A stretch of DNA of 27,551 bases from an uncultured Candidatus Saccharibacteria bacterium (lineage in GTDB: Bacteria > Patescibacteriota > Saccharimonadia > Saccharimonadales > AWTP1-31), in NCBI GenBank assembly GCA_964465215.1, contig CAYXHO010000002.1:1-27551 (forward strand), read 5' to 3'. A program made the position numbers and the translations under genes. Positions 16,499 to 19,693 of the stretch are shown in pieces. The notes under the pieces were generated by a model that ran no database searches, was not told where the DNA came from, and saw only the letters and a list, made by a program, of their open reading frames with translations. Each line of letters starts with the position of its first letter. Position 1 is the first letter of the stretch.

Positions 16499-17185
16499 CT
16501 AACGAGTGGCGAGTTCTTTGTAGCGTAACGCGGGCATTAAGGCAGTTATAACTGTAGCCATCAGTGACACAACTTGTCCGGCAATACCGAATACCGAAAA
16601 AGAAGGAATGAGCACGCAGGCAAATAGCAATCCGTACATTGTCCAGATTGGACGCCACTGACCTTTAGTCATAGCAAAACTACTACGCAAAGATTCAAGT
16701 ACTCCGACGTTTTTATCGGCCATGACAAATGGTGCCATTGAAAGGCGAGTAAATACCCAAACAGAGGGCAAGATAAATGCGACAAAACCGAGCAGTATCC
16801 CAAGTCCCATCGCTAGTTGCAGTACAAGCAATGGGAAAAACTGATTTCTTGTAGCTTCCCACAGCGAAAACGCTGAAACACTGCGTTTACGAATAATGGC
16901 TATTTGTAACTGAAGTTGCATAACCTGAAAGACCATCAGCAGAATTAGGAAGGCAATGGTAATCTGGAGATTTAATCCAAAAATTGACTCCATTATTAGA
17001 CGAAGATTTACTGGTTGGCCTTTTTCAAGTACAAAATTGCGACCATGCAATACACTTACCAAACTCAAAATAGATGTTAGTGCATACACTCCAACAACGG
17101 GACGGATATGAGCTTTGATAAGCTCCCAGCTTTTGGCCAGCAGTTCGGTAGCCGGCATATACTGCTTAGTATGTGTGTGTTTCAT
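16499..17185 (-). CDS. Integral membrane protein, resembling YciC/UPF0259/DUF975-type proteins
   Basis: About 5-6 hydrophobic segments; LLAKSWELIK and RLSMAPFVMADKNVGVLESLRSSFAMTKGQW patterns; SD AAGGAG. Family assignment is from memory of the pattern only. Confidence 0.75.
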   Translation of the reverse strand: MKHTHTKQYMPATELLAKSWELIKAHIRPVVGVYALTSILSLVSVLHGRNFVLEKGQPVNLRLIMESIFGLNLQITIAFLILLMVFQVMQLQLQIAIIRKRSVSAFSLWEATRNQFFPLLVLQLAMGLGILLGFVAFILPSVWVFTRLSMAPFVMADKNVGVLESLRSSFAMTKGQWRPIWTMYGLLFACVLIPSFSVFGIAGQVVSLMATVITALMPALRYKELATR

Positions 17186-17237
17186 GAATTCTCCTTAACA
17201 GCATTATGACCGAATAAAGCATTGAATGAAATAGAAG

Positions 17238-17266
17238 TTGCGTTGTAAGTACGTTTATGTTTTACT
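17238..17266 (+). promoter_or_regulatory. Putative promoter of the his leader/hisGE unit
   Basis: TTGCGT (17238-17243), 17 nt, TTTACT (17261-17266) preceded by TG-n; 6 nt before leader ATG 17273. Confidence 0.5.
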
Positions 17267-17272
17267 AGCACT

Positions 17273-17326
17273 ATGATTTTAGTTAGTCAATTACACGTAC
17301 ATATCCGGCCGGATCGTCTCGGTTAG
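17273..17326 (+). CDS. Putative histidine leader peptide MILVSQLHVHIRPDRLG (17 aa)
   Basis: ATG 17273 to TAG 17326, with His codons CAC (17294-17296) and CAT (17300-17302). It sits directly upstream of an antiterminator/terminator pair and hisG. Confidence 0.75.
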   Translation: MILVSQLHVHIRPDRLG

Positions 17327-17359
17327 CTTTGTATTTGTTTTTGCAAACTACGCCGGGGC
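17316..17359 (+). promoter_or_regulatory. Antiterminator hairpin of the attenuator
   Basis: GTCTCGGTTAG (17316-17326) pairs with CTACGCCGGGGC (17348-17359), with G-U pairs and one bulge. The helix continues as TTTGTA (17328-17333) with TGCAAA (17342-17347) and sequesters the 5' arm of the terminator. Folded by eye. Confidence 0.65.
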
Positions 17360-17381
17360 AACCCCGGCGTTTTTTATTTTT
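17350..17381 (+). terminator. Intrinsic terminator (attenuator) upstream of hisG
   Basis: ACGCCGGGG-CAA-CCCCGGCGT is a perfect 9-bp stem followed by TTTTTATTTTT, on the sense strand 35 nt before the hisG ATG. Confidence 0.9.
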
Positions 17382-17415
17382 GTTAACAATTTACTAACTA
17401 TTACAAGGAAAAACT

Positions 17416-18367
17416 ATGAACTATATACCAGGAAATTACTCGGCGGCAGAAATCGTGCGAGCTGGACAAACTATTGCACTACCTAAAGGAAGGGAGACAG
17501 AAGGCGTAGCCGAATGGCTCACCAACATTGGTCTTACCCTGCCGGACTTTGAACGGAGGTGTCTTCACCGTAACTGCACAAAATCGAACTTTCTACCGCT
17601 CGCGAGGTAAAGATATACCCGAAGAGGTTCTAAGAGGAATTGCAGATGTTGGATTTTGCGGCAGTGATGTATTTAACGAGGGATACTTGGCTGGAAAATT
17701 CAAAACTCTAGGCTTTAAAGCTATTACCGGGGCAGGATGTGATTTGGTTCTAGCAGGAAAACCATCTCTCAATTTGCGAAAACCGCTAAGAATTGCAACG
17801 AGCTATCCGCTGCAGGCAATCAAATATTGCATGCAAAGGGGCTATACTATCGATTTGCAAGCTTTAACTGAGTTTGGTGGCGGCATAGAAGGCAAGTTAG
17901 TCTCGGATGCATTCAACGCTATTGTCGATCTTCGGAGCTCTGGCGAAACACTGCGTGACAATGGTCTTGAAGTATTCGACTGCTTTGACACCATCCAATC
18001 CGGCGTCGTCTATAAGCAGCAACCGACTGATTGTGCCGACCTACTTGTGGATCCTTGGCGAATATACGCTGAGGCACAGACTTTGCAAAATCGCTATCAG
18101 CAAGCTCAAATGGCCACAGAAATACCTACTCGTAAATCAACCATACAACTACTCATGGATGGGAATAAACGACGAAAGAATCTTGGTGAAGAAGCTGCCG
18201 AATTAGTTACCGCAGATGCACTTGGCATTGATATCGCAACCGAAGTTGCCGATGTTTCTTTTGCTACCAAGGTTATTGGTTTGGCAAATGGTATTTCACC
18301 TATCCGAGCACTTAACGAAGAGCTACTGCGTAATTCTGTACCTGATTTACCGAATCTACCATGTTAA
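17416..18367 (+). CDS. hisG: Short-form ATP phosphoribosyltransferase (HisG) fused to a phosphoribosyl-ATP pyrophosphatase (HisE)-like domain; split into two frames joined by a putative +1 programmed frameshift at 17563-17569
   Basis: Frame 1 (17416-17610) has IALPKGR. The +1 frame has RGKDIP, GIADVGFCGSDVFNE, RIATSYP and AIVDLRSSGETLRDNGL, then HisE-like KNLGEEAAE...EVAD. Joining after Leu50 (CTT) into ACC 17567 gives 316 aa. A pseudogene or sequencing error cannot be excluded from one sequence. Confidence 0.8.
17555..17569 (+). promoter_or_regulatory. Putative +1 ribosomal frameshift signal GGAGG-TGT-CTT-CAC-C
   Basis: Internal SD-like GGAGG 3 nt before an in-frame CTT, as in prfB (AGGGGG-UAU-CUU-UGA-C). 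The A-site codon is His CAC. Confidence 0.7.
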
Positions 18368-18388: not shown

Positions 18389-19693
18389 ATGTCACTATCT
18401 ACACAACCCTATAAAGGGGCCCGGGATTTCTACCCGGAAGATCAACGATTACAAAACTATATCATCCGCACGTGGAGCAAGGTGCTAGAGCAATTTGGCT
18501 ATGAAGCGTACAACGCTCCGATGCTAGAAAGCATTGATTTATATAAGGCCAAGTCAGGTCAGGAGATAGTCAACGAACAAACCTACACCTTTACCGATCG
18601 AGGTGGTCGTGAAGTGGTTATTCGCCCTGAAATGACTCCTTCAGTCAGTCGCATGGTGGCTGCCCGGCGCCAAGAACTTGCCTACCCGCTACGCTGGTAT
18701 AGCATCCCAAACCTCTGGCGCTATGAGCGAGCTCAGCGCGGTCGGCTTCGCGAACACTGGCAACTCAATGCCGACCTATTTGGTGTTGAAGGGTTAGAAG
18801 GTGAGCACGAGATGATCCTCATTTGTGATGCCATTCTAAAAGCATTTAGTGCTTCTCGCGGAATGTACCAGATCAAGATTAATAGCCGTCAGCTGATGGA
18901 TTCAATCATGTTAACCTATTTGGGCCTTAATAAAGCTCAGGCACATGATCTATCTAAGTTAATCGATCGGTTACACAAAATGCCACGAGCCACATTTGTG
19001 GCTGAAGCAGATGCGCTGTTAACGCCCAGCCAAAAGCAAGCCGGTGTGAGCGAACGGCTTTTAGAAGTACTTGACGTTGATAACCTTGCCGATTTACCGG
19101 AAGGTCTGATGGATAATCCAGCTGTATTAGAGTTACAAAAGCTTTTTGACATGCTTGAAGATGGTGGCGTTACTAACGCCGTGTTCGACATTAGTATCAT
19201 GCGTGGTTTCGACTACTATACCGGCGTCGTCTTTGAACTAACCGATACAGACCCAGAAAACAATCGCTCCATGATGGGTGGTGGACGCTACAATGGATTA
19301 GTTGGGTTGTTTGGCGTTGACCCCGTACCAACCATTGGTTTTGGTTGGGGTGATGTCACGATGATAAACTTCCTATCATCACACGATCTTTTGCCAACAC
19401 TGCCCTCAGAAACGGAAGTGTATGCCATCCTTATTGGAGATGTCTACCAGCAAGCCCAGAAGCTACTGGCTGCACTTCGATCTGAAGAATTAACCGTTGC
19501 CGTTGACGCTAGTGACCGAAAAATGAGTGCCAAGCTCAAAAGTGCTGTCAAAAAGAATATCCGTTTTGCTCTCTTTATTGGCGAAAAAGAACTTGCCGAA
19601 GGTCGCTATAACCTTAAAGATCTTCACAGTGAAACAGAGCAAACACTGAGTCCTGAGAGGATTGTCAGCACTGTTTTAGATGTCCGTAAGTAA
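18389..19693 (+). CDS. hisS: Histidine--tRNA ligase
   Basis: PYKGARDFYP, IRPEMTPS, motif 2 RYERAQRGRLREHWQLNAD, RGFDYYTG, GGGRYNGL, GFGWG, and a C-terminal anticodon-binding domain, which argues for HisS rather than HisZ. Confidence 0.95.
   Translation: MSLSTQPYKGARDFYPEDQRLQNYIIRTWSKVLEQFGYEAYNAPMLESIDLYKAKSGQEIVNEQTYTFTDRGGREVVIRPEMTPSVSRMVAARRQELAYPLRWYSIPNLWRYERAQRGRLREHWQLNADLFGVEGLEGEHEMILICDAILKAFSASRGMYQIKINSRQLMDSIMLTYLGLNKAQAHDLSKLIDRLHKMPRATFVAEADALLTPSQKQAGVSERLLEVLDVDNLADLPEGLMDNPAVLELQKLFDMLEDGGVTNAVFDISIMRGFDYYTGVVFELTDTDPENNRSMMGGGRYNGLVGLFGVDPVPTIGFGWGDVTMINFLSSHDLLPTLPSETEVYAILIGDVYQQAQKLLAALRSEELTVAVDASDRKMSAKLKSAVKKNIRFALFIGEKELAEGRYNLKDLHSETEQTLSPERIVSTVLDVRK

Follow-up and report, generated by a model that had tools for sequence, protein, structure and literature searches.

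The gap upstream of hisG in the genome of an uncultured Candidatus Saccharibacteria bacterium carries what is most probably a histidine-responsive, ribosome-mediated leader-peptide transcription attenuator of the hisG-hisE/hisS genes, which would report the level of charged tRNA-His; from sequence, folding and homologue comparison we put the probability of this reading at roughly 0.85. The DNA analysed is a stretch of 27,551 nucleotides (contig CAYXHO010000002.1 of assembly GCA_964465215.1; hereafter the window), and the source contig is part of a 0.78-Mb metagenome-assembled genome that is 94% complete (G000). A gap of 230 nt between a minus-strand gene at 16499-17185 and the start of hisG at 17416 on the plus strand holds the whole element, all parts of which lie on the plus strand.

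An earlier note on this DNA had described a 17-codon open reading frame (ORF) with the His codons CAC and CAT. This frame is present at 17273-17326; its translation is MILVSQLHVHIRPDRLG and it ends with TAG (17324-17326). The regulatory His-x-His codons CAC GTA CAT (17294-17302, with CAC at 17294-17296 and CAT at 17300-17302) are the proposed stall site, as judged from the sequence and from comparison with homologues. Further downstream the intrinsic terminator that had been placed at 17350-17381 was confirmed as ACGCCGGGG-CAA-CCCCGGCGT (17350-17370) followed by the T-rich tract TTTTTATTTTT up to 17381. Its stem (17350-17358 with 17362-17370, loop 17359-17361) comprises nine base pairs, eight of them G-C, and has a folding energy of −17.7 kcal/mol. 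The antiterminator, assigned by the note to 17316-17359 with a 5′ strand over the last codons and the stop, was recovered by folding as well: segment 2 (17316-17326), which consists of the last leader codons and the stop, pairs with segment 3 (17348-17359), which overlaps the 5′ arm of the terminator (17350-17358) and the first base of its loop. The two strands enclose an inner hairpin (17328-17347; 17328-17333 with 17342-17347), and for most homologues small hairpins are likewise predicted in this position. Segment 1, GGCCGG (17307-17312), can form a 1:2 hairpin with 17319-17324, which overlaps the last leader codons and reaches −5.6 kcal/mol when folded alone; this segment would lie under a ribosome stalled at the His codons.

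The antiterminator was folded on 17315-17361, i.e. with the RNA masked to 12 nt past the last His codon (CAT 17300-17302 in the A site) and with the 3′ arm of the terminator excluded, since it was taken as yet untranscribed. Under these constraints the pairing of segments 2 and 3 around the inner hairpin yielded −19.0 kcal/mol (z = −4.4 versus shuffles). As the terminator reaches −17.7 kcal/mol, the antiterminator is predicted to be energetically competitive in the window, which the earlier proposal had presupposed. The untranslated leader of the window folds as an upstream hairpin including 1:2, plus the terminator.

These elements can be combined to the following mechanism, each step of which is drawn from sequence, folding and comparison. 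Transcription would probably start at or beside the A of the leader ATG (17273), and a ribosome would load on the 5′ end directly. With ample His-tRNA the ribosome would reach the TAG and, since segment 2 is made up of the last leader codons and the stop, would mask this segment; segments 3 and 4 would then form the terminator and the polymerase would stop in the T tract. If His-tRNA is scarce, the ribosome would stall at 17294-17302 and cover segment 1, leaving the RNA free from 17316 onward. Segment 2 would pair with segment 3, the terminator would not form and transcription would proceed into hisG-hisE and hisS. Without any ribosome 1:2 would form and the terminator would still form, or alternatively, in many homologues, 1:4 together with 2:3, which places a GC stem beside the T tract. 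Since histidyl-tRNA synthetase (HisRS) makes His-tRNA, such a loop would be homeostatic for HisRS activity and histidine supply.

The hisG-hisE fusion was found in two genomes of the same family and on ten further contigs from a protein database. The note had suggested a search for similar leaders upstream of homologous hisGE genes, and 11 distinct leaders are recognisable among these loci, each with a GC-rich hairpin and T tract behind it; their peptides include MVNLTTQLHLHIQPEHLG, MVYQNNQHHQHILPERRG and MKFISNQHHTHISPERLG. A search of genome contigs revealed HisG-HisE relatives only in two species already known, and a search of metagenome contigs one irrelevant locus. One locus (L027) that encodes a HisG-HisE protein of 80% identity has no His leader; its upstream region differs and contains a hairpin of its own. 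Furthermore, the core pattern CATA-N4-GCCGGA-N6-CGGTTA was searched with at most one mismatch in 401 sampled genomes of the order. It matched 76 genomes, once per genome, compared to about 20 for a reversed control pattern; one of the 76 is an unpublished genome (G279), which counts in the tally only. Among 30 fetched pattern loci 27 were true leaders, while three were one-mismatch false positives. The exact core pattern was absent from about 285 genomes of other Patescibacteria orders, a search that would miss diverged versions. The hisG-hisE loci and the pattern-derived loci together gave 35 distinct leaders, all from Saccharibacteria of the same order.

The leader ORF and its His codons, whose conservation the earlier note had left to be checked, turned out to be conserved in this set. 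The peptides share the core [H/L]-H-x-H-x-x-P-E-x-x-G-stop, and frame 0 is open in 35/35 leaders, the two alternative frames in 7 and 12. The length is 18 codons in 27/35 leaders and another whole number of codons (11 to 21) in the rest. A His residue at position −8 from the C terminus occurs in 35/35 peptides but is imposed by the search pattern, whereas the positions −10 (His in 30/35) and −11 (19/35) were free and can be compared with a His frequency of 2.1% in the proteome. Each leader carries one to four His codons (two or three in 31/35), arranged as H-x-H or H-H-x-H. In all hisG-hisE leaders that were measured the last His codon begins 24 nt ahead of the stop; in the pattern-derived loci this spacing is fixed by the pattern itself. 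As 35 distinct leaders have this ORF, spacing and set of hairpins in common, the combination is, from sequence comparison, more than chance. CAT accounts for 79 of the 87 leader His codons (58% genome-wide). Directly before the His codons an Asn-Gln pair (AAC CAG) is conserved, with N in 20/35 and Q in 25/35 leaders at positions −13 and −12; none of the models tested assigns it a pairing partner, and it could provide a codon or nascent-peptide context affecting stalling.

A conserved short ORF may also be an independent small-protein gene, for instance for a His-rich metal-binding or signalling peptide, with the hairpin merely as its terminator and the downstream genes expressed by read-through or from another promoter. 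The C-terminal half of the peptide, H-x-H-[I/T]-x-P-E-x-x-G, is indeed strongly conserved (P in 33/35, E in 34/35, G in 35/35), and the Asn-Gln ahead of the His codons is conserved with no explanation by RNA pairing. Nevertheless, the conserved P-E and G-stop codons coincide with segments 1 and 2 (GCCGGAG and CGGTTAG, respectively), the N-terminal half is poorly conserved, and co-variation links the terminator loop to codons 13-15, something not required of a plain terminator. Moreover, the gene that immediately follows the element on the same strand is always hisS or linked to hisS, and most loci have no room for a separate promoter. We therefore regard a small-protein gene as very improbable and the attenuator as the better account of the conserved frame.

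Conservation at the RNA level was analysed for the single hairpins. Across 34 leaders the terminator is 90.9% paired with three pairs changed on both sides, and none of 500 shuffles reached this pairing or co-variation. Compensatory changes include C-G to U-A or A-U and A-U to G-C, and slid registers pair at 38-53%. The antiterminator has an invariant proximal part (CGG with CCG, U-G flanks) and a variable distal part, in which the variable bases of leader codons 13-15 pair with the terminator loop. Different lineages solve this pairing differently: UCUCGG with CCGGGG, AUCUCGG with CCGGGAU, UGAUCGG with CCGGUCA, GCAG..CGG with CCG..CUGC, GCAA-CUCGG with CCGGG-UUGC and GCG..UCGG with CCGG..CGC. 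When 11 leaders are aligned with MAFFT, 75% of the antiterminator is paired, compared to 31-47% for slid registers, and three pairs change on both sides. Since the terminator loops differ in length and thereby shift the register, column-wise counts are unreliable, and duplex energies were therefore calculated free of alignment, with segment 2 of each leader paired to its own and to foreign terminator arms plus loops in a permutation test. The mean was −10.35 kcal/mol for own and −8.33 kcal/mol for foreign partners, and 0 of 50,000 permutations were as good. With one representative for each of nine sequence types the means were −10.32 and −8.82 kcal/mol (p = 0.014).

Over the homologues predicted energies range from −4 to −6 kcal/mol for 1:2, from −6 to −19 kcal/mol for 2:3 and from −10 to −19 kcal/mol for 3:4. 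A 1:2 hairpin of 4-6 bp and −4.2 to −5.7 kcal/mol with the nearly invariant core GCCGG is predicted in all of the 11 leaders examined. In many homologues (L031, L033, L034, L032, L035, L037 and others) the sequence of segment 1 (CGCCGGAG) nearly repeats the 5′ arm of the terminator and is complementary to segment 4 (CUCCGGCG), so that the minimum-energy fold of the full-length leader is 1:4 enclosing 2:3 instead of 1:2 plus 3:4. As this fold also sets a GC stem against the T tract, it would terminate too if no ribosome sits on segment 1.

The position of the element relative to a putative promoter was derived from reading the sequence. A −35-like hexamer TTGCGT (17238-17243), in place of which many homologues have TTGACA, lies 17 nt upstream of an extended −10-like box TGT-TTTACT (17258-17266), which ends 6 nt before the leader ATG. 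The closest relative (L028) shows TGG-TTTACT with the same spacing. Overall, 24/35 leaders have a −10 box whose end is 6-7 nt away from the ATG, and the box is TGn-extended in 21/35, while a Shine-Dalgarno (SD)-like motif precedes the leader ATG in 1/35; the structural genes carry AGGA or GGAG. Because of this geometry and the near absence of SD-like motifs the leader is likely to be translated leaderless, from the first base of the transcript. The promoter geometry would be that of leaderless mRNAs and matches mapped cases in Deinococcus deserti and mycobacteria. The leaderless start suggested by the earlier note fits the promoter geometry of the family as a whole, while the window's own −10 box speaks less clearly for it; for the window this start is inferred mainly from the promoter spacing found throughout the family.

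Several observations weigh against the attenuator reading or limit the strength of its parts. The −10 hexamer of the window, TTTACT, is non-canonical and lacks the usual A at position 2. Low-depth contigs of this organism or close strains were assembled from public RNA runs (the wastewater metatranscriptomes X11 and X12), and one of these contigs (17101-17389) covers the leader, ends 8 nt beyond the T tract and starts 172 nt upstream of the ATG. The run from which it stems has essentially no hisG coverage, and the contig may merge divergent transcripts or reflect DNA carry-over; it is uninformative on the 5′ end and was not counted as evidence. Since the pairing segments also encode the P-E-x-x-G-stop tail, constraints on the peptide and on the RNA are inseparable, and the predicted 1:2 hairpin is short, G-U-rich and invariant, with no co-variation either way. 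The column-wise count for the antiterminator is weakly controlled, with 36 of 500 shuffles reaching the observed score, and with relatedness reduced the co-variation of 2:3 is modest (p about 0.01). Support for an antiterminator that is mutually exclusive with the terminator is moderate. Finally, several homologues have an antiterminator (−6 to −9 kcal/mol, z near 0) far weaker than the terminator (−14 to −19 kcal/mol), and kinetics would therefore have to matter there, as in classical attenuators.

The last point also fits a real but constitutive partial terminator, which would serve as insulation against the divergent promoter region or keep operon expression at a fixed low level, with no sensing of histidine. 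HisRS is essential, so basal read-through has to be substantial in any case. Such an element nevertheless leaves the His codons, their distance to the pairing segments, the co-variation of the loop and the absence of His from the first gene product (see below) unexplained, and we give it little credence. Conserved His ORF, His-to-stop spacing, terminator, co-varying antiterminator and promoter placement are jointly consistent with ribosome-mediated attenuation by His codons, as the earlier note had proposed.

Terminators with alternative pairings are an architecture common to riboregulators that act independently of the ribosome, and many hisS genes of Firmicutes are controlled by T-boxes (PMC2965389). 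In the window such a switch would bind tRNA (T-box-like) or protein (HutP- or TRAP-like), and the short ORF would be incidental. Rfam cmscan, applied to 16900-17700 at E values up to 10 and to the whole window at gathering scores, detected neither His_leader (RF00514) nor T-box (RF00230); there were only chance-level matches to small RNAs at E up to 10. Membership in these two families was rejected for want of a covariance-model match, and HutP-type control was rejected as well, HutP not being found in a search of the genome. The leader measures about 100 nt between its predicted 5′ end and the terminator, less than a T-box requires, and a ribosome-independent switch would not account for an open frame in 35/35 leaders, for the His codons at free positions or for the 24-nt distance from His to stop. 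Such a riboregulator is accordingly a most unlikely substitute for attenuation by a translating ribosome. A genome-wide scan of G000 for other leaders composed of short ORF and terminator yielded no convincing candidate; a Trp-rich leader candidate on contig C38 was rejected as it lies inside a long ORF of the opposite strand.

The genes 3′ of the leader encode, in this order, a fusion of HisG and PRA-PH (HisE), HisRS with its anticodon-binding domain (hisS), tig and clpP. The hisG-hisE fusion gene (17416-18367; Pfam HisG and PRA-PH) is read in two frames, 17416-17565 and then +1 from 17567, and is preceded by the SD-like motif AAGGA at 17405-17409, where homologues have AGGA or GGAG at the equivalent position. 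In one locus (L035) gene calling gave two ORFs, one for HisG (173 amino acids) and one for PRA-PH (70 amino acids); this is possibly a decaying or differently organised copy. The hisS gene (18389-19693) was assigned by Pfam and by a search of the own genome, in which it is the sole HisRS gene above the curated cut-off. The genome has a single tRNA-His (anticodon GUG). The minus-strand gene on the other side of the gap (16499-17185) shows a weak UPF0259 match, and because of its orientation the terminator cannot belong to it.

The earlier note had seen a his-type attenuator upstream of hisGE. The attenuator logic is supported, whereas the conserved target appears to be hisS rather than a pathway for making histidine. 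At least 20 of 27 related loci have hisS downstream of the leader, the remainder being cut by the flank or by a contig end. It follows the leader directly in eight loci, while at other loci a variable gene precedes it. Products encoded in this place are HisG-HisE, HisG alone, PRA-CH (HisI-like), SLOG/LOG-like proteins (L049, L057, L058), an M15 peptidase (L052), a GNAT protein (L045), an AstE/AspA-like protein, which is the second gene in L038 and L063, and proteins with no Pfam match that carry an AFAG-PPW motif (L038, L039, L044, L063). Since hisS is constant and hisG-hisE is one of several first genes, hisS would be the constant target.

In the 94%-complete own genome no match was found to His_biosynth (hisA/F), histidinol dehydrogenase (hisD), PRA-CH (hisI) or IGPD (hisB), while all 14 control genomes match the his-pathway profiles that it lacks. 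Thus, the organism is almost certainly a histidine auxotroph, and the element is most plausibly a His-tRNA-sensing attenuator that acts on a hisS operon in such an auxotroph. The interchangeable first genes may constitute a gene set for histidine starvation or scavenging. HisG-HisE is an orphan in G000, and in other genera (L043) an orphan PRA-CH (HisI-like) protein fills the same attenuator-controlled slot. The trans-frame HisG-HisE protein contains no His at all in 12/12 complete orthologues (312-320 amino acids), compared to a proteome average of 2.1%; the chance expectation of zero His for one protein of this length is about 0.001, and the HisRS encoded next to HisG-HisE contains 2-8 His. 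A His-free HisG-HisE fits a protein that is needed when histidine is short.

The hisG gene itself contains a prfB-like +1 frameshift site, GGAGG-TGT-CTT-CAC-C (17555-17569, plus strand), with a His codon in place of the prfB stop. In 13/13 orthologous loci hisG is split: about 50 codons end with R-C-L, and the HisG body resumes in the +1 frame. The junction consists of an SD-like element (GGAGG; AAAGG in L003), three nucleotides and CTT-CAC in all 13 HisG-HisE loci, and the same junction occurs in two HisG-only relatives at about 30% identity (loci with the site are L002, L003, L027-L037, L054 and L060). The His codon of the site is always CAC. The zero frame stops 4-14 codons past the junction, the interval for the shift that is common to all loci spans 28 nt (−11 to +17 around CTT), and several loci lack a start codon in the +1 frame ahead of the conserved HisG motifs. 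A metatranscriptome contig of a related strain (17455-17628, about 90% identical) crosses the site with no indel and the site unchanged. In prfB the SD-like element lies three nt before CTT and six nt before the A-site codon (PMC12421855). The hisG site has the same geometry but a His codon where prfB has its stop.

A tRNA-Leu (GAG) is present in the genome and could re-pair on UUC. As the 3′ end of the 16S rRNA is missing from the assembly, use of an anti-SD sequence was deduced from SD-like motifs before genes. A search for the prfB frameshift site in G000 gave no convincing RF2 context, and a literature search returned no report of such a His-codon +1 frameshift site in hisG. By sequence comparison the site is a probable programmed +1 frameshift, which would act as a second, translational sensor of His-tRNA after the attenuator. 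The combined view, namely an operon with two serial sensors of charged tRNA-His (attenuator and hisG frameshift), whose attenuator defines a small histidine-starvation regulon, is one that we favour by a narrow measure. If it holds, full-length His-free HisG-HisE would be made only when His-tRNA is scarce, the site would represent a natural amino-acid-sensing +1 frameshift in bacteria, and the regulon of an auxotrophic epibiont would comprise hisS and interchangeable first genes serving scavenging or signalling, not biosynthesis.

To our knowledge almost nothing is known about gene regulation in Patescibacteria (Candidate Phyla Radiation), and full-text literature searches returned no report of leader-peptide attenuation in this group. 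The element described here is a testable candidate for a cis-regulatory sensor; about a fifth of the genomes sampled from the order contain a match to its core pattern, and most of the matches fetched were genuine. It suggests that a histidine auxotroph still monitors the charging of tRNA-His and tunes its sole HisRS gene together with a variable accessory gene, and it would mark genes likely to be important when the histidine supply of the host falls short. The adjacent frameshift site at a His codon can be framed as part of one coherent starvation response. As some Saccharibacteria are cultivable and genetically manipulable (PMC10633639), these predictions are directly testable.

In its logic and parts the element appears to be a classical leader-peptide attenuator of the type of trpL, hisL and pheM, here in a lineage of ultra-small bacteria that has received little study. 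The enterobacterial hisL leader contains a run of seven His codons. As proposed for the window, these codons serve to sense His-tRNA and thereby control the terminator that precedes hisG (RF00514). The hisL ORF is led by an SD motif, whereas the leaders described here have one to four His codons; the window has no match to the hisL model in Rfam and no histidine pathway downstream of its leader. In E. coli the pheST operon for an aminoacyl-tRNA synthetase is under attenuation by a leader peptide (pheM) with cognate codons; pheM differs from the present leader in the amino acid, in being SD-led and in its unrelated sequence. The trpL leader of E. coli carries two Trp codons, and its attenuation mechanism has been described (PMC4007540). 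Like the element in the window it is short, has its two regulatory codons near the end, forms 1:2, 2:3 and 3:4 folds chosen by the position of the ribosome and terminates by default if it is not translated. In contrast to trpL, the window shows His codons, apparently no 5′ untranslated region or SD motif, and an aminoacyl-tRNA synthetase operon in an auxotroph; the sequences are unrelated. The T-boxes of Firmicutes hisS genes share with the window the gene, the charging of tRNA-His as signal and the choice between terminator and antiterminator as output, but T-boxes bind uncharged tRNA directly with no ribosome involved, and the window has no T-box match.

Outside the Proteobacteria a His leader peptide has been predicted in bacilli, by comparative analysis, upstream of a hisS paralogue and hisZ (PMC2965389, Naville and Gautheret 2010). 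It likewise is a His-codon attenuator before a gene of the HisRS family; the present one belongs to a different phylum and precedes the sole bona fide hisS instead of a paralogue, and no sequence in common was found, though the two were not aligned directly. Leaderless leader peptides for aminoacyl-tRNA synthetase and amino acid genes have been predicted in Deinococcus deserti (PMC4007540), and leaderless poly-Cys short ORF attenuators are known from mycobacteria (10.1101/834739); one example among these leaderless peptides has 10 residues with two Cys and lies upstream of cysS. In these systems, too, the transcript starts at the AUG of a very short ORF with cognate codons before a synthetase or biosynthetic gene. 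Their 5′ ends were mapped by RNA-seq, whereas the start proposed here is derived from promoter spacing, and the present case concerns another amino acid and the Patescibacteria; the paper on leaderless leader peptides mentions neither hisS nor histidyl. The earlier note had considered an apparently leaderless design with two His codons unusual for a CPR-like genome; neither feature is without precedent (PMC4007540, 10.1101/834739). Two-codon leaders, leaderless leader peptides and His leader peptides before genes of the HisRS family are thus already known, and the more novel part of the system lies in the orphan His-free HisG-HisE, the variable cargo genes and the putative frameshift at a His codon.

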